A model generated the notes under the pieces. It did not search any database, was not told the DNA's origin, and saw only the letters and a program-made list of their open reading frames with translations. Source: Candidatus Saccharimonadota bacterium (GTDB lineage: Bacteria > Patescibacteriota > Microgenomatia > UBA1406 > GWC2-37-13). Taken from it: a stretch of DNA of 32,000 nt. The translations under genes and the position numbers were made by a program. The stretch covers positions 930,001 to 962,000 of the forward strand of contig CP066689.1 in assembly GCA_016432445.1 (NCBI GenBank), given 5' to 3'. Shown piece after piece: positions 12,387 through 27,890 of this stretch. Each line of letters opens with the position of its first letter. Position 1 is the first letter of the stretch.

Positions 12387-12410
12387 ACTTTAACAGTTAG
12401 GGTTCAGATT
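12387..12410 (+). repeat. cassette 5' boundary box plus left arm of a 14-bp inverted repeat
   Basis: ACTTTAACAG (12387-12396) followed by TTAGGGTTCAGATT (12397-12410). The exact reverse complement lies at 13698-13711. The same box occurs at 23480-23501, with a variant at 27045-27080. Confidence 0.7.
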
Positions 12411-12432
12411 TTTAGAAATAGGAGGAAAGGAA

Positions 12433-12669
12433 GTGCAAACCGTATCGCTGCCCTTGTGGCAGTTGATGATGTATCTGCTTGGAGGAATGGTATTAGGCAT
12501 TATTCTCTATGTGGTTTTGAAGGATAGAATCATTCAAACCATTGGAAAACTGATGCGAAACCCAAAGCTCACACAGATTATCATCTTTGTAGTTGCAGTA
12601 ATCTGGTTCGCCGCCATGATTTACTCGTGGTGGATAACAGACACCTGGCCTTGGCCAATCAGGATGTAG
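12433..12669 (+). CDS. small two-TM membrane protein (GC-rich cassette 1)
   Basis: GGAGGAAAGGAA precedes the GTG start. Two hydrophobic helices (LMMYLLGGMVLGIILYVVL; IIIFVVAVIWFAAMIYSWWI) and a Trp-rich tail. No family recognised. Confidence 0.55.
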   Translation: MQTVSLPLWQLMMYLLGGMVLGIILYVVLKDRIIQTIGKLMRNPKLTQIIIFVVAVIWFAAMIYSWWITDTWPWPIRM

Positions 12670-12706
12670 GAGGAGATATCATGATCTTAACAAAAGCAAG
12701 CTTTTT

Positions 12707-12724
12707 TGACTCTAGCTAGAGTCA
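12707..12724. promoter_or_regulatory. perfect 18-bp palindrome between the two cassette-1 cistrons
   Basis: TGACTCTAG|CTAGAGTCA. Confidence 0.4.
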
Positions 12725-12783
12725 GGGAAGCTAAGCGAATAGCCGACAAGAAATCAACGATCGATCACGAAAGGAGTTCTAAA

Positions 12784-13686
12784 ATGGGTAAAGCAATTAA
12801 CCTTGCCCTACGCGTAATAGGTGCTGCAGTTGTCTTGTTTATCGCGGTCGCCCTCATCTGGGGGCCGTTAAACGACAACCTGCGGCCTACCAAAAGCTCG
12901 GCAGACGGGACAACTCCCGTTCCGACCGTAGCCTCTGTTTCGCCTACTGCTACACCGACTGCCACCAACACGCCCACGCCTGCAGCTTCCGCAACCGCTG
13001 TTCCGCCTACTACAACCCCTGCGCCCAAAGTCGCTGTACCCTGTCCGACAGACGAGGAAATGCGGCGAGCGCTTGAATTCGACCGGCTCGGCATCAAACC
13101 CGTGTTCACTGGCGAGGGAATCGTCTGGGATCCCTGTAAGTGGAATTGGCAAAGCAACGATCTTAATGCCGTTCCGATTACCCTCCCTGACGGTTGGCAA
13201 GCAACTACAACTCGCGGCAGTGATGGAGCAGTCCAGGTATGGAAAGGCCCGGCGCCAAAGATGGATGTCCGCGGCTTCACCCTCCGTTTCTTACGGCCCT
13301 ACGACAGACAGGAGTCTCGGTGGGCCCTCGACAATTGCGAACTCCTCACAAGGGAGAACGCTTTTGGCGAACGGCGTAACCCATCCTATCCAACCACTAA
13401 CGGCAATGTTTCTTGTGCTTCCAACCCACCCAAAAACTCTGGTTCCGGAAGCATCTCCAAATCCTGGCTTCGCGACAATGTCGGAGGCCGCGAGGACAAG
13501 TGGACCGAGCCTGACTGGTCTGGTGGCGCCTGGGTCTACAAGGACAAGGGAACCTTTGTCCCTATGAAATACCCTGGCTCCGGGGAGTTGACCGTTTGGA
13601 TCAGTGGTGGTCCAGTGATTATAACTTCAGCCAATGCCAGCCGACTCAATGGCCAAAGTTTCGACGAGGCTTCATTCAAGCCGTAG
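12784..13686 (+). CDS. TM-anchored protein with a Pro/Thr/Ala linker and a Cys/Trp-containing C-terminal domain (GC-rich cassette 1)
   Basis: AAGGAG lies 7 nt before the ATG at 12784, which I prefer to the track's TTG at 12706. MGKAINLALRVIGAAVVLFIAVALIW is the TM anchor. TPVPTVASVSPTATPTATNTPTPAASATAVPPTTTPAP is the linker. A ~200-aa domain of unknown family follows. Confidence 0.65.
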   Translation: MGKAINLALRVIGAAVVLFIAVALIWGPLNDNLRPTKSSADGTTPVPTVASVSPTATPTATNTPTPAASATAVPPTTTPAPKVAVPCPTDEEMRRALEFDRLGIKPVFTGEGIVWDPCKWNWQSNDLNAVPITLPDGWQATTTRGSDGAVQVWKGPAPKMDVRGFTLRFLRPYDRQESRWALDNCELLTRENAFGERRNPSYPTTNGNVSCASNPPKNSGSGSISKSWLRDNVGGREDKWTEPDWSGGAWVYKDKGTFVPMKYPGSGELTVWISGGPVIITSANASRLNGQSFDEASFKP

Positions 13687-13697
13687 CCGAACCGGCC

Positions 13698-13810
13698 AAT
13701 CTGAACCCTAATCTATCTGGGGAAGTGGAGTTGATCTCTTTCGCGATGCTTACGCATCGCAATCGCTTTACCGCGATTTAGAGTATCTTCTCCCCCTTCC
13801 CCCAGTTTTT
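13698..13810 (+). repeat. cassette 1 3' boundary: right inverted-repeat arm plus nested-hairpin trailer ending in a T-run
   Basis: AATCTGAACCCTAA (13698-13711). CTGGGGAAGTGGAG (13717-13730) pairs imperfectly with CTCCCCCTTCCCCCAG (13790-13805). This encloses GCGATGC-ttac-GCATCGC and AATCGC-tttacc-GCGATT, followed by TTTTT. It contains GCTTTACCGCGA (13765-13776), identical to 27856-27867. Confidence 0.65.
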
Positions 13811-13854
13811 ATACCCAAAATTATTTTGGTTAGAAAAACTGGAAAATAAAACTT

Positions 13855-15186
13855 ATGAGCAAATTAATAGATAAATATAATTCGCCGGATTCACTGATCA
13901 TCGTTTCTCTTTATCCTAAAAAAGGAGAAATTTACTCTGTTGAGACAAGCGGAGTGGCTTCTTACACTAAAAACGTTGTAAAAAATATTGATAAAAAATC
14001 AGTTATTTTTGCCAACTACATTAACAAAAAACAAGAAGTTTACGAAGAAGATCATTCTTTAATCTTACGCTGCTTTAAAACTAACCATCCTTTCATGTGG
14101 ATTAATCTTTTGATAAATATTTTTAAATTCAATAAGATTAAAAAAATCCTAGTTCAGTTCGATTTTGCTATATATGGTAATGTCCTTACTTCATCACTTA
14201 TACTGCTTTTTTTGGGAATTTTAAGACTTTTCGGCTACCAATCTTCAATTGTTATCCATCATGTAATTACTGATATAAATAAACTTTCTGGTCACGTAGG
14301 TTTGGGCAATGCAAGAACTGATAAAACAAAAGCTATTTTATTTAACATCTTTTTCCGATGTTTCTACCTTATATTAGGCTTCGTTGCCAATCAGATAATT
14401 GTACTCGAGGAAACCTTAAAATATAAGTTAAAATCTATCGCTCCTTATTCCAATGTCACTGCCATCTCCCATGGCGTAGATACTAATCTTTCTTCTCCTT
14501 TAAAATCTTTGGCTCGAAAGAGACTTGGAATTAAGAAAAATGAAAAAATTGTTCTTTTCTTTGGATTTATCAACTGGTTTAAAGGAGCTGATTTCTTTGT
14601 TGATGTTTTTAATAAAAAAAATAATATTCTTGATAAAAAAACTCGCTGCATCATTGCCGGAGGCATAAGCCCTACTCTTAAAAACAAAGGTTATTATCAA
14701 AAATATTTTGCCAAAGTGATAAGTTCAATCAGTACTTCACCAAAGATTGAGATTACAGGCTGCGTTCCCCAAAGGAAAATCGGTTATTACTTTGCTGCCG
14801 CTGACGTGGTTGTGTTTCCTTACCGTCATTTTATGACTGCCTCAGGCGTACTTTCCTTAGTCTTTTCTTACAAAAAACCGTTTATTGTCTCCAACGAACT
14901 TTCAGAGATGTTTAATGCTTTTGATCTTCAAAATGCCCTTCAGTTATCAGGATTAGAACAAAAAGATTATATTTTTAAGCTTAACAAACAATCCCTTCTA
15001 GTTAAACTTAAAAAAGTCTTAGACAATGGCGTTAAAAAAAAGATGATTCGCATGGCTGAGATTGTCAGAGAAAAACGCTCTTATAAAAATACTGCTTTAT
15101 TGTATGAACAAGCTATCTTTAACCCTAATTCATATAGATTAAAAGACAAGCTTCTTTTTTCTTATAATAAGTTGTATGAAAGATAA
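13855..15186 (+). CDS. GT-B fold glycosyltransferase, family 4-like
   Basis: The C-terminal half has the Glycos_transf_1 layout (KIVLFFGFINWFKGADFFVD ... AADVVVFPYRHFMTASGVLSLVFSYKKPFIVS). First gene of an overlapping three-gene unit. Confidence 0.8.
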   Translation: MSKLIDKYNSPDSLIIVSLYPKKGEIYSVETSGVASYTKNVVKNIDKKSVIFANYINKKQEVYEEDHSLILRCFKTNHPFMWINLLINIFKFNKIKKILVQFDFAIYGNVLTSSLILLFLGILRLFGYQSSIVIHHVITDINKLSGHVGLGNARTDKTKAILFNIFFRCFYLILGFVANQIIVLEETLKYKLKSIAPYSNVTAISHGVDTNLSSPLKSLARKRLGIKKNEKIVLFFGFINWFKGADFFVDVFNKKNNILDKKTRCIIAGGISPTLKNKGYYQKYFAKVISSISTSPKIEITGCVPQRKIGYYFAAADVVVFPYRHFMTASGVLSLVFSYKKPFIVSNELSEMFNAFDLQNALQLSGLEQKDYIFKLNKQSLLVKLKKVLDNGVKKKMIRMAEIVREKRSYKNTALLYEQAIFNPNSYRLKDKLLFSYNKLYER

Positions 15187-16903
15187 TGCCTCTTGGATCG
15201 TTTTTACAGCCGTTACTGTCCTTCTTTTTTTATACTTTGTCTTTTCTCCTGTCTTAAATTATGGCGGCGATATTGTTGAGTATTACGGGATTACTGAGTC
15301 TGTACTAAATCACGGAAATATAAACTTAACTCCTAAAGATCAAGAAAATATTACTAAAACCTTAAACCCAGGCTATTTCAATGACCCCCAATATTATATA
15401 AGAGGTGTCGGCGATAACAGATATCCAGTCCATTTTATTTTTTATTCCCTTTTGACAATCCCCGTTAGATTAGCGCTCAAAATATTTGAACTTAATGAAC
15501 TTCGCCTCTTCAGTCTTACAAACCTTCTTATATTTTCATCGACTATTTTTATAGTCCTTAAATATTTTCTTAAGTCTCAAGCGAAAAAACTAGCTTTTTT
15601 GACTTTTATCTATCTTTCTCCGCTTATCTGGTTTTTAAGCTGGCCGGGACCTGATATTTACTATACAAGCTTAGTTTTGTTATCAATTTTCTTATTTTTT
15701 AACAAAAAATATATTGCTGCCACTATATTGGCCTCACTAGCCTCATGGCATAGCCAACCTCTCATTGTTGTAGCTTTAGGATTTTTGGCTTATTATTCTC
15801 TTAAATCTATCCACATTTACTCAATCAATGAAAATAAACATCTAAATATTACCTTCAACAAATTATTTAGAATACTTGTTCTTCTATTATTAATAGCTGT
15901 CCCATATCTGCAGAATTATTTACTTTTTAAAGTTTTTAGTCCCTGGACTATTCTGCAAAATGGCTGGACAATAATTTATGGCTTTGGATTTCAGAATTTT
16001 CAGTTTAAAAAGCTGTGGGAAATGGTTTTTGATTTAAATATCGGTCTATTGTGGTACTCTCCAATCTTAATGGGTGGAGGAATTTATTACTTTATAAGAT
16101 CAATGATAAACTGGAAAAATAAAATCTTTATCATCGCCCTCGTTATTGTTACAGCTGTGTTTTATCAAACTAACCCAGCCTGGAATTATGGCACTTCAGG
16201 CTTCGGACCAACCCGACATATTCTTTATGCTCTGCCTTTTCTCATTTATTTCATAAGCAGTAATTATTCTTCCAAGATCATTAACTTTGTCATCATTGGA
16301 TTATTTATTGTCTCTCAAATATATATTTTCTCTTTTAACGGATTTCTTTCCCCAACGCTTTCCAACACCTTTCAACATACTCCTTACGCAAAATATCTTT
16401 TAAATAATTTTCCTCAGTTTTATGAACCTACTCCGGAAATCTTTGTTGACCGTACTAATCATAATGACCAAGAATATTTATATACTGCTGTTTATAAAAC
16501 TAAAGGGATTTGCAAAAAAGCCTATGTGCTTAAATCAGATAAGAAAAAACTGATTGAAGAATGCGGTTTTTTACCAAAAAACTATCTTGCTAAACTTGAT
16601 GATGATTTATCAAGAAAGGCAAACTTTCCCAGAAAAGTAATCACTAATGAAGCTACCTTCTGGCCTGACCCTAGAAGTTGTAGCCAGTACCCTCCCCTAG
16701 AATTACCCTATGTATGTATGAAAAATATTAGTGATTTTGTAAATTACACTGGAATATCTGATATTAAAAGAATAAGCAAACTTCCTGAATTTCCTTATAC
16801 TGGAGTTTGGAAGCTAAAATTAGGTCTACCGCTAAGAATTATTGTCCCTCCAGGATATATTATTGATTATAACTCAATTGAAGGAATCTATGTCAATTTT
16901 TAA
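15176..16903 (+). CDS. polytopic membrane protein, possibly a GT-C-type glycosyltransferase or glycan polymerase
   Basis: At least 10 hydrophobic helices in the first ~400 aa, then a soluble C-terminal domain. Its start overlaps the GT4 stop by 11 nt. Confidence 0.65.
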   Translation: MKDNASWIVFTAVTVLLFLYFVFSPVLNYGGDIVEYYGITESVLNHGNINLTPKDQENITKTLNPGYFNDPQYYIRGVGDNRYPVHFIFYSLLTIPVRLALKIFELNELRLFSLTNLLIFSSTIFIVLKYFLKSQAKKLAFLTFIYLSPLIWFLSWPGPDIYYTSLVLLSIFLFFNKKYIAATILASLASWHSQPLIVVALGFLAYYSLKSIHIYSINENKHLNITFNKLFRILVLLLLIAVPYLQNYLLFKVFSPWTILQNGWTIIYGFGFQNFQFKKLWEMVFDLNIGLLWYSPILMGGGIYYFIRSMINWKNKIFIIALVIVTAVFYQTNPAWNYGTSGFGPTRHILYALPFLIYFISSNYSSKIINFVIIGLFIVSQIYIFSFNGFLSPTLSNTFQHTPYAKYLLNNFPQFYEPTPEIFVDRTNHNDQEYLYTAVYKTKGICKKAYVLKSDKKKLIEECGFLPKNYLAKLDDDLSRKANFPRKVITNEATFWPDPRSCSQYPPLELPYVCMKNISDFVNYTGISDIKRISKLPEFPYTGVWKLKLGLPLRIIVPPGYIIDYNSIEGIYVNF

Positions 16904-19900
16904 AGACCGCAGCCGAAAATTTATATCTCTTATCATTTTGCACGCAGTAATCCTTATTATATTACTCATGAATTTTTCATGGGGAAAATATTTTACAGGT
17001 TGGGATGCCATTAATCCCGAATATAATTTCAGCCTAAATTTTCAGCGGTCTTTGTCAGCTTTTTGGCAGGAAAACTATGGATTAGGAACCATAGGCGGGC
17101 ACGGATTCGCGGCTCTTTTACCTCACACCGCAGTTACCTATTTGTTTTCTGTTATTTTTCCTCAGTGGGCAATTAGGACCATTTTTACTTTTTTTAGCTT
17201 TTACCTTGGCAGTGTAGGAATGTTTTTTTTAGTTCGATTTATAATTCAAAAATTGAGAGATGATAAAAAACTTAATTATTTTTTGCAGGATATACTAGAA
17301 AAAAATCAAGAATATTTAGCCTTAGCAGCTTCATTATTTTATATTCTTAATCTAGGAACGACTCAAACTTTTTATGTTCAGCTTGAACCTTTCATTGTCC
17401 AGTTTGCAGCTCTTCCTTGGCTTTTCTGGATTATTATCCGACTTCTAGATAACTGGAATAAAAAGAATCTACTATTATTTTTTTTCATTAATTTTTTAGC
17501 TACAATACAAGGATTTATTCCTTCTTTATTTGTCGCCTATGCTACAGCTTTAAGCATATTTATTATAATGACGGCTTTTTTTCATCGAAAATCGCCAATT
17601 TATTTAAAAAATATTTCCCTTATTGCGATCTTAACTCTGATTATAAACTTATACTGGATTATTCCTTTGGGCCATTATGTTTTAACTCAAAATCAGTCGT
17701 TTTTAAGCGCTTACAATAATCTTCAATCTACTCCTAATTTTGTTGAGGTTAGTAAAAAATATGGAAATTTACCTAATGTCGCCTTGCTCAAAAGCTATTT
17801 GTTTGATTCAGTTCAGTTTAATATACCAGTTCTTAAACCTTGGATTAATCATCTGAATAATCCTTTAACTGTTTTTATTGGCTATATATTTTTTTTGATT
17901 GTAGTAGGCGGAGCTGTTTTTTCATTTTACTTTTTTAGACAATATCTCCCCAAAATCTTGGCCATTATTTTTATTTTCTTTTTTGGCAATATAGCTATTT
18001 CAACTCCGCCGTTTTCTTTTGTAATAAACATCTTGCAAAGTCTCTCCCCCACCTTTGAGCAGGCTTTCCGCAATACTTTTACTAAATTTAGTATTGGTCT
18101 TGCTTTTGAATACAGCATATTTTTTAGTTTTGGACTGATTTTTTTACTTTTCTTTAAAAAGAAATATCTAAGATTTAACTGGAATAATAAGTATTTTTTT
18201 ACTATAATTATTTGTAGCCTTATTTTTTATTCGTTTCCAGTCTTCACCGGCAACTTAATTTATAAGAATCTTCTTCTAAAAATACCTCAAGCTTATTTTG
18301 ATATTTTTGATTATTTTAAAACTCAAACAGATGGAAGAATTGCTGATTTTCCTCAAGATTGCCCTGAAGGATGGTACAGCTATAGTTGGGGTTACATCGG
18401 TTCAGGATTTCAATGGTATGGCGTAAAACAACCTTTTGCTTCCCGCACTTTTGATGTCTGGAGCAATAATAATGAAAATTATTTTTGGCAAATAAATCAA
18501 GCTATCAGCGAGAAAAACTATGCACTCGTGGACTCCGTCTTTAATAAGTACAATATTCGTTGGATTTATTATGATCCCAATATAAAACACTGTCGGGATC
18601 AAAAAGCGTTTCTTCAGTATGATAATTTTATTCAATATTTATCCTTATCTAATAAGTACACCTTAGTAAAAACCTTTCCTTCTGATAATATTGCGTCCAT
18701 AAAGCTTTTTGAAAACAAATATTTTTCAGATAATAGTTCTTATGCAGGAGCGATTAACAACTTAGCGAACATTGGTCCTTTTTACAAATGGAATGATGAC
18801 GATCGGGCTTTTTTTGAGCGGGATGATTATATGACTACAGAAAATAAGGATTATGATATCTATTACCCTTTCCGTTCTCTATTTACCAAAAGAAGTTCTG
18901 AAGAAAAAGAATATAGCCTTAAGACTTTGAATAACTGGATTATATTCAGCAATACTATTCCCAAAAACGTTCAAAATTATATTTTTAAAACTAAAAATTA
19001 CAATGATATAGAGAAAAAACTGCCATTTTTCTTAAAGTTAACAAAAGTTGATAACACCACTTATGAAATTTTCCTTTCTTACATTTTTCCCCAGCTGTTT
19101 ATTGATGGAAAAAAATTATTAAATTACCAACCATCTTATAAGTTGGGAACTTTCAGAACTGATGAGTTTAAAGTAATGATTAATAATCTTGAAGCAGAGG
19201 GTGATGATGGACTATATAAAGATTATTTTACTCTTAATACATCCAATAAAATAGAAATTATTAACAGCTCTTCTGCACCAATTTTTTCTTGGGATAGCGA
19301 ATCAGATATTTTGTATAAAAACATCATCAGCAAAAATTTTACTCTTAATATCCCCTCTTTTGAAAATGGTTATCTTGAAGTGATAACTCCTAAAATCAGT
19401 GATAAAAAGTTAAATGGTTATGAGGTTTACTCTGAGCTTGACAGTAATCTACCTCAACCTTGCGAAAAGAATACTCTAAATAAAAATCTTTCCTATGAAA
19501 TCGGAAAAGAGCAAGGAATCAATTTCGTCCGGCTTATATCAAAAAAATTCAATCAATGCTTGATATATAATCTCGATCAAGTTTCAGCGGCAAACAGTTA
19601 TTTACTGGAGATAATCTCAAGAAATATAAGCGGTGCTAATCCGCTTTTTTACATTTTTAATCGTAAAGGAGAACGTTACCTTGACTTAAATATTAACAAC
19701 AACTCCTTATTCAAAAATCACTCTTATATTATTCCGGCAGTGGCAGAAGGCGAGTTGGGTTATTACTTGCACTTTGTTAATAAAGCCGGTATCAAACAAC
19801 AAACCATAAATGACTTTGGAGGCTTTGGATTATGGCAAATACCCTATGAATTTATTAAAACAATTAAGTTTCAAAATAAAGTTACAAATAATTTAACAAT

Positions 19901-20294
19901 TAATAATGACATTATAAATCTAGATGTCTCCCACCCTAATTCAACAGTTTACTCTTTTAATATCCCTGAAACAGAGATTAATTACATTGTGTTATTTCAA
20001 GGCTTTCATCCTTCATGGAAAGCTTATGTGTTACCACTGTCTCAACTCACTTTTTTAGATAGTTTCCTGCCTTTTATAAAAGGAGCAGAATTAAAAAACC
20101 ATGTTTTAATAAACAACTGGGCTAATGGCTGGAAATTAGATTCTCCCTCAAATATAAACAGTCAAACATCGGTTGTTGTGATTTTCTGGCCGCAATATCT
20201 TGAATTTATCGGTTTTGGAATTTTAATTGTCAGCTTCGCTGTTATTTTGATTCGTTCAAAATCTAAAACCTTGCCTGACGGCAGGCAGGTCTAA
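16890..20294 (+). CDS. very large membrane protein with a GT-C-like (DUF3367/AftD/YfhO-like) architecture
   Basis: About 470 aa of polytopic N-terminus (WDAINPEYNF...WQENYGLGTIGGHGFAALLPH), about 650 aa of soluble region, and a single C-terminal TM segment. The ATG at 16890 follows GGAAGGA and overlaps the preceding ORF. Confidence 0.7.
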   Translation: MSIFKDRSRKFISLIILHAVILIILLMNFSWGKYFTGWDAINPEYNFSLNFQRSLSAFWQENYGLGTIGGHGFAALLPHTAVTYLFSVIFPQWAIRTIFTFFSFYLGSVGMFFLVRFIIQKLRDDKKLNYFLQDILEKNQEYLALAASLFYILNLGTTQTFYVQLEPFIVQFAALPWLFWIIIRLLDNWNKKNLLLFFFINFLATIQGFIPSLFVAYATALSIFIIMTAFFHRKSPIYLKNISLIAILTLIINLYWIIPLGHYVLTQNQSFLSAYNNLQSTPNFVEVSKKYGNLPNVALLKSYLFDSVQFNIPVLKPWINHLNNPLTVFIGYIFFLIVVGGAVFSFYFFRQYLPKILAIIFIFFFGNIAISTPPFSFVINILQSLSPTFEQAFRNTFTKFSIGLAFEYSIFFSFGLIFLLFFKKKYLRFNWNNKYFFTIIICSLIFYSFPVFTGNLIYKNLLLKIPQAYFDIFDYFKTQTDGRIADFPQDCPEGWYSYSWGYIGSGFQWYGVKQPFASRTFDVWSNNNENYFWQINQAISEKNYALVDSVFNKYNIRWIYYDPNIKHCRDQKAFLQYDNFIQYLSLSNKYTLVKTFPSDNIASIKLFENKYFSDNSSYAGAINNLANIGPFYKWNDDDRAFFERDDYMTTENKDYDIYYPFRSLFTKRSSEEKEYSLKTLNNWIIFSNTIPKNVQNYIFKTKNYNDIEKKLPFFLKLTKVDNTTYEIFLSYIFPQLFIDGKKLLNYQPSYKLGTFRTDEFKVMINNLEAEGDDGLYKDYFTLNTSNKIEIINSSSAPIFSWDSESDILYKNIISKNFTLNIPSFENGYLEVITPKISDKKLNGYEVYSELDSNLPQPCEKNTLNKNLSYEIGKEQGINFVRLISKKFNQCLIYNLDQVSAANSYLLEIISRNISGANPLFYIFNRKGERYLDLNINNNSLFKNHSYIIPAVAEGELGYYLHFVNKAGIKQQTINDFGGFGLWQIPYEFIKTIKFQNKVTNNLTINNDIINLDVSHPNSTVYSFNIPETEINYIVLFQGFHPSWKAYVLPLSQLTFLDSFLPFIKGAELKNHVLINNWANGWKLDSPSNINSQTSVVVIFWPQYLEFIGFGILIVSFAVILIRSKSKTLPDGRQV

Positions 20295-20324
20295 GATCGA
20301 TTATCAAAGATCTAATGTGCTACG

Positions 20325-20333
20325 TGCTATAAT
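20325..20333 (+). promoter_or_regulatory. extended -10 promoter (TGcTATAAT) of the ATPase gene
   Basis: TGCTATAAT at 20325-20333, 14 nt before the ATG at 20348. Confidence 0.4.
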
Positions 20334-20347
20334 AAAAGAAACTATCT

Positions 20348-22513
20348 ATGAAAACTCTCTCTCATCTCCAAGTTAGGAACCCTAAAGATGATGAAACGCC
20401 AATTGAGGCTTCAACTCAGATCTTCTCATCTCTAGTCCCCTATCCTTTTATACCTTTATGGAGGAGACTTCTTTTTTCGCCGCGGACTTATGCTTTTGAA
20501 ATTTTTCTTTTAGGCCAGACTGTTTATTTTTATATCTCTGCTCCCTCGGAAAACGAAACCTTAATCCAAAGTCTCGTTACTTCATCTTTTCCTCAATCGG
20601 TTCTTCAGAAAACCACTGACCCTATGGATATTGTTTTAAAATCCAAACATATTATGGCTGGAGAGGCTTGTCTTAACGCCGCTTTTTATTATCCGATTAA
20701 AACTTATATGGATTTTACGGATGTTGATCCAATGGCTGCACTTTTAGGTTTTTTAGCAAAACAACCTGCCAATATCAAAATGGCTGTCCAGATACTGATA
20801 ACCCCAGCTTCATTCCCGTGGCAAAGTCAAGCTGTAGCCGCAGCAGCACTACAGTCTTTAGATGAAGCCTCGGAAAAATATGTCCGTAATCCTCATCAGC
20901 TTTTGATTATGAGAAAAGCTTCATTTCAAGGAGGTAGAACTGCTATCCGCTTAGTTGTCGGTTCAGACACTGATAACACACCGCTTCTTCCTTATCTACA
21001 AAACCTGGCCGGAACTTTTGGCACTTTTTCTTTGGGTGAAGGCAATCAGTTTGTTTTTAAGCGACCTTTATTTACGAAACAGCGTTTCCTTTCCCGGGTT
21101 AAAAAAAGAAAGATAAATTATTTTGAACGGCAAAACCAGATCTTAAATGCTCAGGAAATCGCCAGTATTTGGCATCCTCCAGGGTTTCTACTGGCCGGAA
21201 TTAAAAATGTGGCCTGGGGTAAGACTCTGGCTGGAGAGCCGCCTGAAAATCTGCCTGTTTCTGAAGGTATTACCGATCAGGAAAAACAAGGCGTCAACTT
21301 TTTTGCTAAAACCGAGTTTAAAAACAAGGAAACTATTTTTGGTATTAAAGATGCCGACCGGCGCAAGCATGTTTACATTATTGGAAAAACCGGAGCTGGA
21401 AAATCTACCCTCATTGCCAACATGGCTATAGACGATATCAGAAAAGACAGGGGCATTGGTATTATCGATCCCCACGGCGATTTGTCAGAAACTATTCTTG
21501 ATTTTATTCCCAAAAGACGCCTTAATGATGTTATTTACCTTGAACCTTTTGATACAGAAAGACCTTTTTCTTTAAATGTCTTGGAAATTAAAAACAAACA
21601 GCATAAAGATTTAGTTGCTTCAGGCATTGTTTCCATTTTCAATAAGCTTTATAAAGAAAGCTGGGGACCTCGTCTGGAGTATATTCTAAGGAATGTTATT
21701 TTAACCCTGCTTGAAATACCCAATGCAACTCTCATTGATGTTTTATCGCTTCTAGCCCAAGAGGATTACCGCAGAAAAGTAGTCCGTGAGATTCAAGATC
21801 CAGTCATTAAAAATTTCTGGGAAAAAGAGTTTGCTAAGATGCCAGACCGTCTGAAAGCTGAAGCCATTTCCCCTATTCAAAATAAGGTCGGACAGTTTGT
21901 TTCCTCCAAAATGATCAGGAATATTATTGGTAAACCAAAATCTTCAATTGATCTTGAAGCCGCCATGAATGAAGGGAAAATACTGATCTTAAATCTCTCC
22001 CAGGGAAAACTTGGAGAAGATAATGCGGCTTTGCTTGGCGCCATGATGATCACTCAGATCCAGCTTGCGGCCATGAACCGTTCTTTTGTCAAAGAGGAAG
22101 ATAGAAAAGATTTTTTCCTTTATGTTGATGAGTTTCAAAATTTTGCCACCTCATCTTTTGTAAAGATCTTATCTGAAGCAAGAAAATATCGGTTATCTTT
22201 AGCTTTGGCTAACCAGTACATTGAACAGCTTGAAGAAGAAATTCAAAACGCAATATTTGGCAATGTCGGTACACTTATGTCATTTGTTGTGGGTGCCCGC
22301 GACTCGGAAATATTATCTAAAGAGTATGGCGAAATTTACACTGAAAGTGATTTAGTCTCCCTTGGAAAACATGAGATTGTTTTGAAGCTTTCTATCGATA
22401 ATATGACCTCTGCTCCATTCCCGGCCAAGACCCTTCCTCTTCCTGCCTTAAAAAATGAAAATAGAGAAAAAATAATCAAGTTATCGAAAGAAAAATATGG
22501 AAGGAAGGTATAA
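20348..22513 (+). CDS. TraD/VirD4/TraG-like (type IV coupling-protein-like) P-loop ATPase with a ~340-aa N-terminal domain of unknown function
   Basis: Walker A IIGKTGAGKST, Walker B FFLYVDEFQNF, and LALANQY. There is no N-terminal TM helix and no other T4SS gene in the window. Confidence 0.75.
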   Translation: MKTLSHLQVRNPKDDETPIEASTQIFSSLVPYPFIPLWRRLLFSPRTYAFEIFLLGQTVYFYISAPSENETLIQSLVTSSFPQSVLQKTTDPMDIVLKSKHIMAGEACLNAAFYYPIKTYMDFTDVDPMAALLGFLAKQPANIKMAVQILITPASFPWQSQAVAAAALQSLDEASEKYVRNPHQLLIMRKASFQGGRTAIRLVVGSDTDNTPLLPYLQNLAGTFGTFSLGEGNQFVFKRPLFTKQRFLSRVKKRKINYFERQNQILNAQEIASIWHPPGFLLAGIKNVAWGKTLAGEPPENLPVSEGITDQEKQGVNFFAKTEFKNKETIFGIKDADRRKHVYIIGKTGAGKSTLIANMAIDDIRKDRGIGIIDPHGDLSETILDFIPKRRLNDVIYLEPFDTERPFSLNVLEIKNKQHKDLVASGIVSIFNKLYKESWGPRLEYILRNVILTLLEIPNATLIDVLSLLAQEDYRRKVVREIQDPVIKNFWEKEFAKMPDRLKAEAISPIQNKVGQFVSSKMIRNIIGKPKSSIDLEAAMNEGKILILNLSQGKLGEDNAALLGAMMITQIQLAAMNRSFVKEEDRKDFFLYVDEFQNFATSSFVKILSEARKYRLSLALANQYIEQLEEEIQNAIFGNVGTLMSFVVGARDSEILSKEYGEIYTESDLVSLGKHEIVLKLSIDNMTSAPFPAKTLPLPALKNENREKIIKLSKEKYGRKV

Positions 22514-22515
22514 GA

Positions 22516-22767
22516 TTAGATCTTTGATCTCTCTTTCTTCTTCCTCAATCTATTTAAAAAGTAACCTAAAACTGCTCCGGCGGCAACTTTTATAATTTCC
22601 GATTTGCCCAATCTAGTTATGGACTCAACTTTTTCCGTGGCCTCAGATTTTAGTTTCTCGACTTTTCGATAAGTCATCCATAAAAAAACAGCCGCTACGA
22701 TAATTAAAATAAACCATGAAATCATCACTGCAATTCCTAAAATATAGAAAATTGTTTGAATATCCAT
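22516..22767 (-). CDS. small membrane protein
   Basis: N-terminal TM helix (IFYILGIAVMISWFILIIVAAVFLW), a helical linker, and a basic tail. It abuts the ytxH stop, so operon arrangement is likely. Confidence 0.55.
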   Translation of the reverse strand: MDIQTIFYILGIAVMISWFILIIVAAVFLWMTYRKVEKLKSEATEKVESITRLGKSEIIKVAAGAVLGYFLNRLRKKKERSKI

Positions 22768-23226
22768 TTATTTTTTTCTCTTATTTTCAATTTTTCTGGT
22801 AGTTTTTTCTTCACTTTCTACTAATTTATTCCACCTTTCCACAAAGTAATCTTTTAATTGGTTAAGTTTTTCATCAGCTTGGTTTGTTTCTTTTTTAACT
22901 TGTTCTATAGCTTCTTTTACAATAACAACGTATTTATCTTTATCAATGTTCTCAACCCGTTCTTTAACAATATTCAACTTTTCATCAATGATATCAACTA
23001 TTTGATTATAAATTTTTAAACCTTCCTCACCGGCTATACCGAATAACTCTTTTACTTTTTTTTGAGTTTCTTCACTGCGAAGCATCTCTTTAATCTCCTG
23101 CAGTTTATTAATGACTGCTTCTCTATTTTCTTTTCCAGATTTAGGAGCAATAAATATACCTGTTAAAATACCCATGATCATGCCAACTACCACCCCTACG
23201 CTGAATTTATTTTTATTGTTATTCAT
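22768..23226 (-). CDS. YtxH-domain protein
   Basis: VGVVVGMIMGILTGIFIAPKSGKENRE is the YtxH signature. A long charged coiled-coil-like region follows. Confidence 0.8.
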   Translation of the reverse strand: MNNNKNKFSVGVVVGMIMGILTGIFIAPKSGKENREAVINKLQEIKEMLRSEETQKKVKELFGIAGEEGLKIYNQIVDIIDEKLNIVKERVENIDKDKYVVIVKEAIEQVKKETNQADEKLNQLKDYFVERWNKLVESEEKTTRKIENKRKK

Positions 23227-23368: not shown

Positions 23369-23377
23369 TGCTATAAT
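23369..23377 (+). promoter_or_regulatory. extended -10 promoter (TGcTATAAT) of GC-rich cassette 2
   Basis: TG at 23369-23370 and TATAAT at 23372-23377. No good -35 box seen. Confidence 0.35.
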
Positions 23378-23479
23378 AATAGCAATATTCAAATATGGGT
23401 TGGTACAACGCCATATTTTTACCTTGAAAGTCTTTACGTCTTTTCAGCGTAAGATAGGAAATATTGGACTTTTAAGGGA

Positions 23480-23501
23480 ACTTTAACAGACAGGGTTCAG
23501 A
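23480..23501 (+). repeat. cassette 5' boundary box plus left arm of a 10-bp inverted repeat
   Basis: ACTTTAACAG (23480-23489), AC, then AGGGTTCAGA (23492-23501). The exact reverse complement lies at 24113-24122. Confidence 0.65.
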
Positions 23502-23608
23502 AAAAAAGAAAATGAAAAGAGGGTAAAAAAAACAAAAGAAAAATAGAATAAAGTATAGTGGAAAAATACAGTCTCAACTGTATCTCTCATGTCAGAAAGG
23601 AAAGGAAA

Positions 23609-24109
23609 ATGAAAATTCTATCCGCGATCCTAGTTTCCGTAATTCTGCTGGTAGGATGCGAGTCATCCGCTCCAACGTATTCCGGCGGGTACGTTAGCCA
23701 GCAACCACCAAGTCAGTCTCAATCCCAGGCAGCGCCGTCAAATCCAGTATCCGCAGTGATGCTGACTAGCGACAACCTTGACCAGTACATTGGGGGGGCG
23801 CCGTGGGGATACGCGCCATCGCAGTCGGCAAACTGCAATCGGCAAATTGTGGGCTACGATCCAGTAGCTCAGATCACCTTTTCCAAAGGTACTGCCCTGA
23901 TACCAGATTTACAGGGCTTACCCGCAACTTACAAGGTCTTTGACAAATCGCGGTTTTTAGTAACCATCGCCTCAGCAACGCAGTGGGTTTTCGAGTACGT
24001 GAGTATGAAAAAAATCGTGCTTGATCAACCAGCGCGGCCCAACCTTGTCGCCGGACCAGGACCAACCCCCACTCCTTACCCCAAACCAATCTGTGTCTAC
24101 ACCAGGTAG
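23609..24109 (+). CDS. lipoprotein of unknown function (GC-rich cassette 2)
   Basis: AAAGGAAAGGAAA precedes the ATG at 23609. MKILSAILVSVILLVGC is a signal peptide with lipobox L-V-G-C. The mature N-terminus is Gln/Ser/Pro-rich, and the tail is PGPTPTPYPKPIC. Confidence 0.65.
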   Translation: MKILSAILVSVILLVGCESSAPTYSGGYVSQQPPSQSQSQAAPSNPVSAVMLTSDNLDQYIGGAPWGYAPSQSANCNRQIVGYDPVAQITFSKGTALIPDLQGLPATYKVFDKSRFLVTIASATQWVFEYVSMKKIVLDQPARPNLVAGPGPTPTPYPKPICVYTR

Positions 24110-24110
24110 G

Positions 24111-24200
24111 AATCTGAACCCTTATCTCAACGAGGGGCTTTGTTGTTTTAAAACAACCCGCAACCCGCGGTCAAAAAAACAACTTAGCCCCTCCCCACCC
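24111..24200 (+). repeat. cassette 2 3' boundary: right inverted-repeat arm plus hairpin trailer
   Basis: AATCTGAACCCTTATCT (24111-24127). GAGGGGCT (24132-24139) pairs with AGCCCCTC (24186-24193), enclosing the perfect palindrome GTTGTTTTAAAACAAC (24142-24157). Confidence 0.6.
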
Positions 24201-24201
24201 T

Positions 24202-25056
24202 CAACATTCAACCTCTGGAGTTGAAAGTATTGTTGTAACGGTCTAGATCTTAATTTTTACCACTTCTTCGCATGCTTAATGAATTCTAAAGTTTTTTGAT
24301 AGTCTGCGTTCATAAGTACAAATCTTTCATATCGATCTTTGTCTTTCTGAAAAAGGTCAAGGATAAATTCATCATTACTCAACCTTTTTTTATTGTTAGA
24401 TAAATATTCTTTAAAAGAAGATAAATGATAATTTTCTAAATCCTTAATATTTTCGATTACGCTTGATGAATAAGGATTAAGATGAATATAACGGGAGACG
24501 TGTTTTAGTTGTTCGTCATTTAATATCCTCACTGATTTAAATTTAGGCAAAAAAATCGGACCTCTTCTTTTATTCTTAATATTGTAATACCTCGTAAATG
24601 AATTGAGAACGTCGGAAATAAATCGAGGGATACCTTCATCCGTTTTTTGCCTTAACAAAAAATGGAAGTGTGTAGGCATTAAGCAAAAAGCCATGATTTC
24701 TACTTTAAAATATTTTTTAAATGAAACCTCATTCATGAGATTTTCAACTATTTTTTTATCAGTTATTTTTAATTTAGAAAAACTTATTGCTGCCTTTAAG
24801 GAACGGTAGTAAGCAAGAAGTTGCATAAAAATATTTGTATTGCTGTCTCTAATTTTAAATATTACTCTGTGATCAATTGTCCTGTTAAAAACGTGATAGA
24901 TTGAATTGTTTAGAAAAGGTTCAAGTCGTTGAGGCATGAGAAAAATTTACCTCAATCATAACCTTAGTTACAACGGATTATCGTCAACAAAAGTGAGGAA
25001 AAAATCATATCTAGACTGTCTTGACAACCTTTTCAACTCCAGGGGTTGACATATTG
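24202..25056 (-). mobile_element. IS200-like / RAYT-type element: a Y1 HUH transposase gene flanked by ~47-bp inverted REP-like repeats
   Basis: The left repeat (24202-24248) and the reverse complement of the right repeat (25009-25056) share TCAACC, CTGGAGTTGAAA, TTGT and a terminal GTCTAGAT. Each holds a TCAAC/GTTGA hairpin. Confidence 0.75.
24257..24937 (-). CDS. IS200-like HUH-Y1 transposase (REP-associated tyrosine transposase type)
   Basis: HUH motif in CLMPTHFHFLLRQ and the catalytic-Tyr helix in VSRYIHLNP. At 226 aa it has a C-terminal extension, typical of RAYT-like rather than minimal IS200 TnpA. Confidence 0.85.
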   Translation of the reverse strand: MPQRLEPFLNNSIYHVFNRTIDHRVIFKIRDSNTNIFMQLLAYYRSLKAAISFSKLKITDKKIVENLMNEVSFKKYFKVEIMAFCLMPTHFHFLLRQKTDEGIPRFISDVLNSFTRYYNIKNKRRGPIFLPKFKSVRILNDEQLKHVSRYIHLNPYSSSVIENIKDLENYHLSSFKEYLSNNKKRLSNDEFILDLFQKDKDRYERFVLMNADYQKTLEFIKHAKKW

Positions 25057-25066
25057 ACATAATGCT

Positions 25067-25423: not shown

Positions 25424-25498
25424 AAAGTGATTATATAATTTTTTCTGTTAAGTCAACAAAAAAATGGTATAATATAAATTCTTCAATTTTTAAACCTT

Positions 25499-25729
25499 AT
25501 GGAAAAAAGACCAACTATACCTTTGTGTGATTTATATATCGCCCGCCCGGATATAATCAAACAAGAGGATGGACCACTAAAGGGCAAAGATTTTTGCCAA
25601 ATTCAAGCTGTCCGTCAAGGCGAGAAAAAATGTTTTCACGCCCAAAGAAGAGGTTCAGGAGGAATGACACCACCAAATTGCCATAGAGTTTTAAGATCAA
25701 GAAGAATACCGGCACCTTGGAATAAGTAA
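25499..25729 (+). CDS. doubtful small basic Cys-containing ORF (76 aa)
   Basis: An extended -10 (TGgTATAAT) lies about 30 nt upstream. No SD and no family recognised. Composition is atypical (more GC than its flanks). It could be non-coding. Confidence 0.25.
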   Translation: MEKRPTIPLCDLYIARPDIIKQEDGPLKGKDFCQIQAVRQGEKKCFHAQRRGSGGMTPPNCHRVLRSRRIPAPWNK

Positions 25730-25742
25730 ACTTAAATGTGAA

Positions 25743-25786
25743 ATAGACTGCTACACCAACTCTTTCAACTCCGAGGTTGATTTTAT
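25743..25786 (+). repeat. third REP-like copy (solo), same orientation as the right repeat of the RAYT element
   Basis: ATAGACTGCTACACCAACTCTTTCAACTCCGAGGTTGATTTTATG compared with CTAGACTGTCTTGACAACCTTTTCAACTCCAGGGGTTGACATATTG (25011-25056). Confidence 0.6.
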
Positions 25787-25795
25787 GTTATGTAA

Positions 25796-26899
25796 TTATT
25801 TACGAGATACTACGTTGGCCACGTGAAAACCGTTGTTTTCCAGTTCTTGCATAACTTCATCAGTCATCTCTCCATTGCCGATACCTATATCAAACCTAAC
25901 TGAACCATTAAGATCATCAATGTGCGACCAAATGGCATTCATATTAATTCCAGCTCCTGCAAGGATCCCTGTCATTCTATTTAATGACCCAACATTATTA
26001 TCTGCAGTTGTAATAGTAACCGAATGAACCTTTAGATTAGCCAAGTGTTCAAGAATAGAAATCGTATCTATATTCATAGCTAATCTTATTTCTCCAGTCG
26101 GATCAAGCTTTTCAACTGTCCGGTCAAAAGTTTTTTCCAGTTTTCCCGGTGGTAAATGACTTTCTCTTATTATCCTTTTCATGGCTCTTCCTAATTCTTT
26201 TACAATTTGTCTACTGTTTGGATTATCACCAAGATTCCTTATAATGGATGCAGAAATTACAGATGATTGTATTAGTGTTCGCCACAATGCTAAGTTGAAC
26301 ATACGCGAATTTGCGGTAGACATTGCTATTAAAAGTTCCATATTGACACCTATCTCAGCAAGTGCAAGCCCTATAGTGCGATTAATCAAATGAGGCTTAA
26401 ATTGAGTAAAATCAGCATCAGAATCATGCTCTTCAAAAGGCATGCGAATAATTACCATACCTGCTTTACCACAAACTTCTTCAGCTATTGAAGTTGCCCT
26501 TTGCCAGTTCTTACCATAGGGAAGTACAAGAGCATTTTGACCAGGTGGCGGTTGATCGTCTTTAAAAAGAAAATGAACAGAGGTAATACTATTATTGTCT
26601 CTATCAATCATTTTATAACCAGGAATTAGACTTTTTTTAGTTGTACAGTCATCCATAATATTTTGATCAGGACCAAACACATCAGCTGTAGCTTGAATCA
26701 TTTCTGCAGCAACCTCAACCGGCACTGAAAAAAACACAGTCTCACATTTTCGAATAGCTTCTCGAGGTGCAATCGTTCCTGTATTTTCTTTATCCGAAAT
26801 AACAACAGGATACCCTGCAGTCTCAAACATTCTTCTTGTAACTTGGCCCATCTTCCCCAATCCTCCGATTATGGCGACAGAGCGATCTCTTTCTGACAT
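25796..26899 (-). CDS. tyrA: prephenate/arogenate dehydrogenase with a C-terminal ACT-like domain
   Basis: Rossmann motif VAIIGGLGKMGQ, a PDH-like core (FFSVPVEV ... MPFEEHDSDADFTQFKPHL), and a C-terminal ACT-like segment (SVTITTADNVGSLNRMTGILAGAGINMNAI). Confidence 0.7.
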   Translation of the reverse strand: MSERDRSVAIIGGLGKMGQVTRRMFETAGYPVVISDKENTGTIAPREAIRKCETVFFSVPVEVAAEMIQATADVFGPDQNIMDDCTTKKSLIPGYKMIDRDNNSITSVHFLFKDDQPPPGQNALVLPYGKNWQRATSIAEEVCGKAGMVIIRMPFEEHDSDADFTQFKPHLINRTIGLALAEIGVNMELLIAMSTANSRMFNLALWRTLIQSSVISASIIRNLGDNPNSRQIVKELGRAMKRIIRESHLPPGKLEKTFDRTVEKLDPTGEIRLAMNIDTISILEHLANLKVHSVTITTADNNVGSLNRMTGILAGAGINMNAIWSHIDDLNGSVRFDIGIGNGEMTDEVMQELENNGFHVANVVSRK

Positions 26900-26952
26900 G
26901 TGGACTGGTATTATAACAAAAAAGATGGATTTAATCTACCGCTTAGTAATTG

Positions 26953-26981
26953 TTGTTAAACCTATAGTTATCTGATAGAAT
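26953..26981 (+). promoter_or_regulatory. sigma70-like promoter of GC-rich cassette 3
   Basis: TTGTTA (26953-26958), 17 nt, TAGAAT (26976-26981). Confidence 0.4.
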
Positions 26982-27042
26982 ATTTTACTGGAGATAAACA
27001 TAAGGTAAAAGCTGCCTTAAGGCTATTTCCAGTGATCTATTT

Positions 27043-27135
27043 GCACTTTGATAACTTGCGGCCCCGCTTAGCGGGGTTCAACGAGTGAGATTAATGTCGG
27101 ACAAATCTTTTGCCCTACCCTAGTCTCACTTGTTG
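27043..27135 (+). repeat. cassette 3 5' boundary: variant box with two local hairpins
   Basis: GCACTTTGATAAC (27043-27055). Hairpin CCCCGC-tta-GCGGGG (27062-27076) runs into GGGGTTCA. CAACGAGTGAGA (27079-27090) pairs with TCTCACTTGTTG (27124-27135); its single G-T position is only tolerated as G-U in a plus-strand RNA. Confidence 0.55.
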
Positions 27136-27165
27136 AGATAATAATGACGAAAGGAGGTAAATAAA

Positions 27166-27363
27166 ATGTGGAAGTGTACGAAGTGCGGACAAGAAGTCGA
27201 GGACCAAGGAAAACATCAGGTTAGGTTGGTTTGGTGTACTCGGTGTCACGATTATCATCAAGCCGACAAAATCGGCCCCAGTCACGCGTGCTACAGAGCA
27301 ATCTCTTGGGAAGAACACGGCGAAGACAAACTCTGCGAATCAGGCTCGTTCATCCACGTCTAA
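27166..27363 (+). CDS. small Zn-ribbon-like protein (GC-rich cassette 3)
   Basis: GAAAGGAGG lies 8 nt before the ATG. MWKCTKCGQ...WCTRCHDYH gives a CxxC...CxxC pattern. Confidence 0.5.
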   Translation: MWKCTKCGQEVEDQGKHQVRLVWCTRCHDYHQADKIGPSHACYRAISWEEHGEDKLCESGSFIHV

Positions 27364-27406
27364 GTAAGCTCGGCAAAGACAGATTAAACATAGAGGAAAA
27401 GAGGGG

Positions 27407-27778
27407 ATGTCTAAACCAACGATCAGTTTCAAACTATCTTGCCCCGACGGCTGCATAGTCATTCCTACAGGAACATCTTTAACTAAGGAGGAACAATGGG
27501 CTCTGGCTATTCTATACACCGCGGCAGCGCGAGCAAAAGAAGGCGGTTTGATTCCAATTGGACTCAGCCAGTTTTTGACACTGTCAAGTGAACCAGGAAC
27601 TCCGTGGACCAAAGTTCCCAACTGCCAAGAAAAAATAGCCGAAGCGATTTTCGGACTAGGCCAAAAACGCCTACTTAAGATTGTCGAAGGCGCCAAGGAT
27701 CTTTACATCGTTCCGCTCAGGACATTAGCCCATTTACTGAAAAAATGTACACTACAACCTCAACCAATTAACGTGTAA
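27407..27778 (+). CDS. hypothetical protein (GC-rich cassette 3)
   Basis: 123-aa ORF co-oriented with the Zn-ribbon ORF, with a GAGGA/GAGGGG purine run upstream. No family recognised. Confidence 0.45.
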   Translation: MSKPTISFKLSCPDGCIVIPTGTSLTKEEQWALAILYTAAARAKEGGLIPIGLSQFLTLSSEPGTPWTKVPNCQEKIAEAIFGLGQKRLLKIVEGAKDLYIVPLRTLAHLLKKCTLQPQPINV

Positions 27779-27855
27779 GGAAAGGAGTTGACCGCAAGAT
27801 CAAAGATAGGACACTGAAAAGTAAACTGAAGAAATATAGAAGCTACCAAGCCGTA

Positions 27856-27890
27856 GCTTTACCGCGACAACGTCGTCGCTTTCTTCTTTT
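27856..27890 (+). terminator. cassette 3 3' box plus intrinsic-terminator-like hairpin
   Basis: GCTTTACCGCGA (27856-27867) is identical to 13765-13776. It overlaps GCGAC-aacgtc-GTCGC, which is followed by TTTCTTCTTTT. Confidence 0.5.

Follow-up and report, generated by a model that had tools for sequence, protein, structure and literature searches.

Antitermination by Nus factors at BoxA and the helices formed between leader and trailer are textbook features of ribosomal RNA (rRNA) synthesis, and to our knowledge only few protein-coding genes controlled by BoxA are known. It has been reported that BoxA controls some non-rRNA genes (PMC5725501) and that leader-trailer helices surround rRNA (PMC10250234). 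In the model proposed for rRNA (rrn) operons, BoxA bound by NusB/NusE is anchored to the RNA polymerase, the leader is held at the exit channel, the body forms a loop and the trailer pairs with the leader upon emergence; the rrn antitermination complex resists Rho, and the leader-trailer helix carries an RNase III site (PMC10250234). Here we analyse three GC-rich gene units (units 1, 2 and 3) in a stretch of 32 kb, hereafter the window, of Candidatus Saccharimonadota bacterium (CP066689.1). With a probability that we put at about two in three, each of them is a transcription unit built like a pre-rRNA, in which BoxA antitermination and a leader-trailer helix bracket GC-rich genes preceded by Shine-Dalgarno (SD) sites, and not a mobile cassette.

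A sequence-only reading of this DNA described a 5' box and a 3' box. The former consists of two elements, a BoxA-like motif and, after it, one strand (the leader strand) of a long-range helix; the latter is the opposite (trailer) strand of this helix (Table 1). In 21 copies the motif reads G-[C/T]-[A/T]-C-T-T-T-A-A-C-A-A, with G1, C4, T6, T7, A9 and A11 invariant, and the sequence around the 12-mer is unalignable among them. The form found in the relatives, G[CT][TA]CTTTAACAA, matches the E. coli rrn BoxA, UGCUCUUUAACAA, and equals the motif of the E. coli rrn leader. Several relatives carry exactly GCTCTTTAACAA or GTTCTTTAACAA, which fit GYTCTTTAANA, the pattern with which Baniulyte et al. 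searched for BoxA sites (PMC5725501), and in several relatives the identity to the E. coli element is 12/12. A 73-nt query from the E. coli rrn leader was found in every E. coli genome, at a median of 7 places, with the motif ~130–142 nt before the 16S gene, which agrees with the position given for boxA, −147 to −133 (PMC10250234). In the study of NusB-NusE-BoxA, G2, C5, U6 and U8 were treated as important nucleotides (PMC3177189), and all four are retained in the three copies of the window; the unit 3 copy also carries the same G9 as the Aquifex rrn BoxA, where it was called likely tolerated (PMC3177189). Judged by the consensus, the 12-mer would be a BoxA, exact in relatives and with 1–3 mismatches in the window copies. 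Moreover, when strict motifs were collected in ~0.5 Mb of related loci, 14 of the 16 that could be evaluated had an island of at least 0.53 GC within 900 nt downstream. No rRNA gene is present in the window or in any relative locus that was fetched.

A scan placed promoter-like sites ahead of the BoxA-like motif, at a distance of 114 nt in unit 1 and of 62 nt in unit 3, which for these two would fit the earlier claim that each cassette has its own sigma70-like promoter; for unit 2, the two-hexamer scan gave no site near the box, and a possible extended −10 was seen by eye only. The motif was also considered as a −35 promoter element, an assignment that was rejected since no copy has a usable −10 at 16–18 nt (by eye) and strong promoters lie upstream. 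A perfect BoxA-like 12-mer, GTTCTTTAACAA, was observed at 22959–22970(+), antisense in the YtxH gene and 520 nt upstream of the unit 2 motif; no trailer complement was found for it.

In units 1 and 2 the leader strand pairs with the trailer strand over 14 and 10 bp, respectively, so that the coding module sits inside a long-range stem, as the sequence-only reading had proposed. When the complete transcripts were folded (1436 nt for unit 1, 731 nt for unit 2), this helix was retained in both the minimum free energy (MFE) and the centroid structure. The idea of a 5'/3' panhandle at the mRNA level is thereby supported, and sharpened to a BoxA joined to a covarying leader-trailer helix. For unit 3, in which only a short local hairpin had been described, a 7-nt strand, CTTGCGG, does find a partner, CCGCAAG, yet a helix of 7 bp is at background level on its own.

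For 18 loci, a local-complementarity score was computed for the 26 nt that follow BoxA and the first 480 nt past the stop codon, in cognate pairs and in non-cognate controls; RNAduplex on long segments was dropped as too noisy, because G-rich strands pair with anything. Cognate pairs scored 24.6 on average and non-cognate ones 15.1 (sd 2.7); in ~37,000 derangements the mean never rose above 17.8. Replacing the leader strand by the 26 nt upstream of BoxA (14.3), or complementarity by same-strand matching (14.9), gave background values. Scores of at least 20 were obtained in 15/18 loci, and in 17/18 the leader strand begins −4 to +2 nt from the end of BoxA. The relatives share this layout, with helix sequences that are entirely different between lineages and complementarity that is kept (Table 1); related pairs, L031 and L042 as well as L011 and L015, show compensatory differences. 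The pairing is thus preserved while the sequence changes, that is, the helix covaries. It works like an rRNA-type leader-trailer helix and is not a member of that family, the enclosed body being made of protein-coding open reading frames (ORFs) with no Rfam rRNA match. A second, independent GC island (3291–4072), located past the glycosyltransferase gene of L040, repeats the arrangement: it comes with a BoxA-like motif, GCTCGTTGACAC, and the leader strand beside this motif pairs with 4052–4072, just past the ORF and a terminator-like hairpin.

The helix could be real, and stabilise or regulate the mRNA from end to end, while the 12-mer binds another protein or RNA, or serves as an entry or processing signal for RNases, instead of being a Nus site. 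In fact, the covariation of the helix is independent of what the 12-mer does, and the copies of the window deviate from the BoxA consensus. We consider this explanation unlikely in view of the full identity to the E. coli rrn BoxA in several relatives, of the invariant positions, which are the nucleotides contacting NusB/NusE (PMC3177189), and of the order in which BoxA and leader strand follow each other, which is that of rrn operons (PMC10250234).

The bracketed genes also stand out by composition. In a 400-nt sliding window, GC reached 0.52–0.59 in the island of unit 1 (12600–13800), ~0.52 in that of unit 2 (23600–24200) and only 0.46–0.48 in the weaker one of unit 3 (27000–27800), against a background of 0.28–0.40, which confirms by calculation a contrast that had been judged by eye. 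The GC content of third codon positions (GC3) is also raised in the five unit ORFs (0.58, 0.58, 0.55, 0.56 and 0.40, compared to 0.14–0.35 in 22 neighbouring genes), so that the compositional break is not due to amino-acid content. All five unit ORFs are preceded by an SD-like motif, which is found in ~5 of the 24 other ORFs of the window, in line with the previous remark that canonical SD sites are mostly missing in the native genes. Several of the non-unit genes show TATAAT 7–15 nt before the ATG, a leaderless-like layout; examples of SD-less genes are those with upstream regions of 6256(−), 11428(+), 25423(−), 26899(−) and 20348(+). In the 8 kb of the genome beyond the window, neither a further GC island nor a further BoxA was found.

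Scans of the five unit ORFs against Pfam, NCBIfam, PHROGs and PADLOC gave no usable match. The C1b protein has an N-terminal membrane helix, followed by a Pro/Thr-rich linker and a Cys-containing domain; searching its AlphaFold2 model (pLDDT 68) against the PDB with Foldseek gave no match (best E 0.05, TM ~0.1). In a word-index search of 5.8 billion proteins, C2 and C3b found only themselves; the exact C3b sequence is an annotated protein of a Candidatus Roizmanbacteria metagenome-assembled genome (MAG). For C1b, only 3 relatives were retrieved in this search (55, 49 and 29% identity), and all of them lie directly upstream of a homologue of the window glycosyltransferase (13855–15186) and of the large proteins that follow it, and are GC- and GC3-rich compared to their neighbours (e.g., GC3 of 0.55 vs. 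0.25–0.29 in L010).

A scan of metagenome contigs with the glycosyltransferase alignment yielded 80 loci, and by tblastn C1b-like genes were also recognised ahead of the glycosyltransferase in L012, L015, L028, L041, L046, L047 and L048. Most loci with enough upstream DNA have a GC island at that slot (0.52–0.63, for a locus median of 0.24–0.42), and the glycosyltransferases of the relatives bearing it are 28–55% identical. This synteny over such divergence argues that the unit 1 island is an old, vertically kept feature of the locus in a wide group of relatives. As a case that would speak against it, the sequence-only reading had named islands that are syntenic, fixed and free of boundary boxes in all relatives: those of unit 1 are syntenic and fixed, but they do carry the boxes. 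By contrast, a C1b homologue in L012 (3138–3910, 38% identity), which can serve as a natural control, lacks both GC-richness and a BoxA, and its leader is short and its terminator simple; the loci without an island are also without an upstream BoxA; therefore, bracket and GC-richness go together. The L012 homologue shows a twin-arginine-like signal. One locus, L005, had looked like a free 1.9-kb copy of unit 1, and was rejected as the same locus ending in Nextera adapter sequence.

These comparisons bear on the possibility that the units are recently acquired foreign genes with their own promoters, SD sites and terminators, the boxes being functionless remnants from a shared donor or a local duplication. 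Such an origin would be compatible with the contrast in GC and GC3, with an SD use unlike that of the neighbouring genes and with the orphan status of C2 and C3b. However, the slot has stayed GC-rich in relatives with strongly diverged glycosyltransferases, BoxA is conserved and its flanks are not, the helix covaries, and no donor-lineage homologues of the unit proteins were found among the 5.8 billion proteins. We regard this explanation as quite improbable; for unit 1, a recent foreign origin is contradicted by the GC-rich homologues at the same slot in divergent relatives, and the earlier suggestion of horizontally acquired envelope genes is not supported.

The borders of the units lend themselves to yet another interpretation, in which AGGGTTCAGA and TCTGAACCCT are terminal inverted repeats of non-autonomous mobile cassettes, moved in trans, for instance, by the adjacent HUH (Y1) transposase. 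Of the exact 9-mer GGGTTCAGA the window contains 4 copies, at 12400(+), 13700(−), 23493(+) and 24113(−), all of them bordering unit 1 or unit 2. The 5' boxes of these units, ACTTTAACAG-NN-AGGGTTCAGA, are identical at 20/22 positions without gaps, and copies of the 3' box, AATCTGAACCCTWATCT, stand at 13698 and 24111, both as originally noticed. Thus, inverted repeats bracket units 1 and 2, near-identical flanks surround unrelated ORFs of a composition atypical for the genome, and a Y1 transposase-like gene adjoins unit 2. Nevertheless, unit 1 occupies the same syntenic slot in many divergent relatives, the helix sequence is lineage-specific with no shared terminal repeat, no target-site duplication is visible at the flanks (by eye), the repeats of the transposase-like gene itself are not at the unit borders, and the five unit ORFs have no recombinase or nuclease family match, as had been anticipated. 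The exact 22-nt box (20 specified bases), scanned in species-representative genomes, a set outside which the source genome evidently lies, gave a single match at about chance level, in an Acidobacteriota MAG, and none in viral contigs. Furthermore, IS200/IS605-type enzymes have subterminal hairpins and not terminal inverted repeats. Mobilisation of the units, whether or not by the HUH enzyme, is in our opinion highly improbable, and for unit 1 it seems largely refuted by these observations. What survives is the idea of a modular 'expression cassette': units 1 and 2 have flanks that resemble paralogous modules, placed around ORFs that are unrelated, with no evidence of transposition.

The HUH gene itself (24257–24937(−)) encodes a protein matching NF047646 (E 2.6e-13, below the cut-off) and PF01797 (E 3e-6). 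Inverted REP-like repeats of 51 nt stand on either side of the gene (24208–24258 and 24999–25049, 76% complementary); a third copy lies at 25744–25772, and the repeats are found nowhere else in the window. By these features the enzyme would be a REP-associated tyrosine transposase (RAYT), unconnected with the units.

Other repeats connect the units less closely. ACTTTRAYAR is found exactly 3 times in the window, once per unit, with 1.3 copies expected, and is not significant alone. The claimed identity of a 12-mer in units 1 and 3 was verified: GCTTTACCGCGA is exact at 13765–13776 and 27856–27867 (0.08 expected), 79 and 78 nt past the last stop, respectively, and inside the 3' hairpins, in a local pairing context that differs between the two units. 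In L007, GCTTACCGC, to be compared with GCTTTACCGCGA, was observed at the tip of a long 3' hairpin (~1655). Instead, the recurrence of TCAACGAG, which had also been pointed out, is at chance frequency (14 matches in ~1 Mb, both strands). Copies of GGGTTCAGA in the distant relatives L031 and L048 are overall at chance, and only that of L048, directly after a stop codon, is suggestive.

In the window the trailer strand precedes a long hairpin, with a T-run behind it in units 1 and 3. The hairpin seen after the 3' box folds far better than shuffled sequence in units 1 and 2, and a similar result was obtained for unit 3 (z-scores in Table 1). Rfam searches at gathering and permissive thresholds revealed no known RNA family in the window units. 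In several relatives, the trailer strand is immediately followed by a type III hammerhead ribozyme, with a CUGAUGA...GAAA core and three stems, in the interval that separates the GC-rich gene from the glycosyltransferase gene (Table 1); an additional one was seen by eye in L038. The next start codon is 0–10 nt past the hammerhead in L007, L010, L028 and L042. The position of these ribozymes beside the trailer strand points to RNA processing at that boundary in the relatives. In L028, the leader strand AAAGGTATATAGGGA (799–813) resembles the region of the hammerhead 3' end and start codon, GAAAGGTATATG (3230–3245), and therefore the trailer strand (3177–3191) could pair with either partner; this possible switch was not seen in other loci.

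Table 1. Features of the three units in the window and of the corresponding loci in relatives (z, folding energy compared with shuffled sequence; for the relatives, positions are those of each locus).
Feature	Positions	Strand	Remarks
Unit 1, promoter-like site	12243..12271	+	scan; TTGAAA-17-TATATT, TG-extended −10; implied leader ~155 nt
Unit 1, small hairpin	12362..12375	+	fold of 12360–12440; 9 nt upstream of BoxA, the boxB position in rrn leaders
Unit 1, BoxA-like motif GCACTTTAACAG	12385..12396	+	compared with GYTCTTTAANA and the E. coli rrn leader
Unit 1, leader strand TTAGGGTTCAGATT	12397..12410	+	14 bp, −20 kcal/mol
Unit 1, ORF C1a	12433..12669	+	78 aa; GTG start, AGGAGG SD, hydrophobic; GC3 0.58
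Unit 1, ORF C1b	12784..13686	+	300 aa; GC 0.56, GC3 0.58; syntenic homologues in relatives
Unit 1, trailer strand AATCTGAACCCTAA	13698..13711	+	exact complement of 12397–12410; 11 nt past stop
Unit 1, long composite 3' hairpin	13717..13805	+	GGGG...CCCC, then TTTTT; z −6.0; contains GCTTTACCGCGA
Unit 2, possible extended −10	23369..23377	+	TGcTATAAT; by eye only
Unit 2, BoxA-like motif GAACTTTAACAG	23478..23489	+	motif alignment
Unit 2, leader strand AGGGTTCAGA	23492..23501	+	10 bp, −15.7 kcal/mol
Unit 2, ORF C2	23609..24109	+	166 aa; lipoprotein-type signal (LVGC); GC3 0.55; orphan
Unit 2, trailer strand TCTGAACCCT	24113..24122	+	3 nt past stop
Unit 2, long 3' hairpin	24132..24193	+	GAGGGGCU...AGCCCCUC; z −4.5
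Unit 3, promoter-like site	26953..26981	+	scan; TTGTTA-17-TAGAAT, TG-extended
Unit 3, BoxA-like motif GCACTTTGATAA	27043..27054	+	most divergent copy; G2, C5, U6–U8 kept
Unit 3, candidate leader strand	27055..27061	+	CTTGCGG; weak, 7 bp, −10.1 kcal/mol; directly after BoxA
Unit 3, two strong leader hairpins	27061..27136	+	z −4.6
Unit 3, ORF C3a	27166..27363	+	65 aa; GGAGG SD; CxxC...CxxC pairs, zinc-ribbon-like by eye
Unit 3, ORF C3b	27407..27778	+	123 aa; orphan
Unit 3, candidate trailer strand	27792..27798	+	CCGCAAG; 13 nt past stop
Unit 3, long 3' hairpin and T-run	27803..27912	+	z −3.8; contains GCTTTACCGCGA; terminator-like stem 27864–27879
L017 and L024, helix			GGGAATCAGGGA / TCCCTGATCCC
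L038, helix			AATTTGCTTGCTT / AAGCAAGCAAATT
L018, helix			ATAGGTATATCAGGTT and complement
L008, helix			TAGGCTAGCTAGTA and complement
L015, helix			AACGAGAACGCAGAAA and complement
L028, helix			AAAGGTATATAGGGA and complement
L031 and L042, helix			TCTCTTTCTTC..TCTTTCC / GGAAAGAAAGAAG..AGAGA
L042, hammerhead	3170–3222		46.4 bits (gathering score 48.5), E 4e-7
L010, hammerhead	1665–1758		30.3 bits
L007, hammerhead	1716–1790		descriptor search
L028, hammerhead	3192–3242		descriptor search
L034, hammerhead	928–995		descriptor search
L039, hammerhead	1047–1127		descriptor search
L044, hammerhead	10–82		descriptor search

From the likeness to rrn operons, we infer Nus binding, antitermination, cleavage and stabilisation as follows. 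Transcription would start at a sigma-70-type promoter and proceed through a long leader with the BoxA-like element, the leader strand lying 0–2 nt after BoxA and the trailer strand 3–13 nt past the last stop, ahead of the long stable hairpin. NusB/NusE (S10) would bind the nascent BoxA and convert the RNA polymerase into a termination-resistant form, as at rrn operons. With BoxA tethered, the adjacent leader strand would stay close to the RNA exit channel and the GC-rich coding body would form a loop; emergence of the trailer strand would then allow the leader-trailer helix to form. This helix might then be the substrate of an RNase III-like double-strand RNase and/or protect both ends; the outcome would be a stable, SD-dependent mRNA whose paired ends are protected or precisely processed. 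In the relatives, the hammerhead after the trailer strand would separate the GC-rich mRNA from the message of the downstream glycosyltransferase.

Some observations do not favour a pre-rRNA-like design. The three BoxA copies of the window do not match the consensus fully, the helix of unit 3 does not exceed background, and no hammerhead was found in the window by the Rfam searches. Units 1 and 2 also share bases outside the pairing (ATCT after the trailer strand, in AATCTGAACCCTWATCT), for which pairing alone is no explanation. Finally, the islands show no consistently positive C-over-G skew; a simple 'C-rich Rho target' argument is therefore unsupported, and a rationale of the GC-richness based on Rho loading onto C-rich, G-poor RNA was rejected.

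On a more tentative level, we suggest that a lineage of the candidate phyla radiation (CPR), including Roizmanbacteria, may run a second, rRNA-like expression route for one class of mRNA. BoxA-loaded Nus factors, acting in antitermination and as an RNA chaperone, would hold the leader strand until the trailer emerges; the GC-rich, SD-dependent message would be closed by the helix, with its 3' end trimmed by a hammerhead in some lineages or set by a terminator hairpin here, while the rest of the genome is AT-rich and SD-less, with many genes that look leaderless. If this were true, a single mechanism would underlie both GC-richness and bracket, with the flanks acting as reusable expression modules around unrelated, fast-evolving surface genes.

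In full-text literature searches we found no description of GC-rich, SD-dependent protein genes lying within a covarying leader-trailer helix to which a BoxA is joined; literature searches likewise gave no report of a protein gene enclosed in a leader-trailer helix, nor of a hammerhead directly after such a helix and 0–10 nt before a start codon. The units could represent a natural mRNA test case for the RNA-chaperone (tethering) model of the rrn antitermination complex, with covarying helices, paralogous flanks and ribozyme-defined ends as handles. They also offer a testable explanation for the persistent GC-rich islands of AT-rich CPR genomes, which would otherwise be annotated as horizontal transfer, and indicate that a conserved 'boundary box' is not necessarily a sign of mobility.

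Regarding the neighbouring genes, the region downstream of unit 1 (13855–22767) encodes a GT1 glycosyltransferase, two large proteins without a family (575 and 1150 aa), a VirD4/TraG-like coupling ATPase (20348–22513) and a weak TraL-like ORF, which by their sequences would form a type IV secretion-like cluster. Unit 2 has the YtxH and RAYT genes as neighbours, and unit 3 lies between a prephenate dehydrogenase gene and trpA. Elsewhere in the window, a tRNA-Thr (GGU) gene (6365–6437(+)) overlaps ~30 nt of the 3' end of the ORF 6405–10601(−), whose product of 1398 aa has no family match.

Comparing the units with known systems, MITEs, integron cassettes and IS200/IS605 cargo likewise have short inverted repeats around ORFs of atypical composition; the units differ from them by the lack of a linked transposase or integrase and of a visible target-site duplication, by their syntenic position and by repeats that covary between lineages instead of being conserved.

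Long operons for surface structures or conjugation are protected by specialised antiterminators (RfaH/ops, LoaP, UpxY). Similarly, unit 1 heads a long cluster with a glycosyltransferase, giant proteins and the VirD4/TraG-like ATPase; the signal here, however, is a BoxA-like RNA element and not an ops DNA element or a NusG paralogue, and no long operon follows units 2 and 3, which are short.

Closer to the units is the BoxA-dependent Nus regulation outside rRNA, namely that of suhB and other genes (PMC5725501) and the BoxA ahead of CRISPR arrays, in which a BoxA-like motif is also found in a non-rRNA leader. In those cases no leader-trailer helix around the gene and no tie to a compositional island have been reported, and at suhB BoxA represses rather than protects; in our window, instead, the motif occurs 3 times in 16 kb. 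The hammerheads of the relatives, in turn, resemble the intercistronic type III hammerheads of bacteria in their core, their three stems and their location between two genes. They differ by standing directly after the leader-trailer helix and immediately before a start codon, and they are absent from the window.

The rrn operon leader shares with the units a conserved BoxA, followed by a strand that pairs with the trailer beyond a long GC-rich body, and a helix whose sequence varies while its pairing is kept. The bodies of the units encode proteins with SD sites and not rRNA; the leader strand is 0–2 nt after BoxA, whereas boxA and boxC are 18–19 nt apart in E. coli (PMC10250234); the helices of the units and of their relatives are short (7–26 nt); and in the relatives the 3' side is marked by a hammerhead, and not only by RNases.

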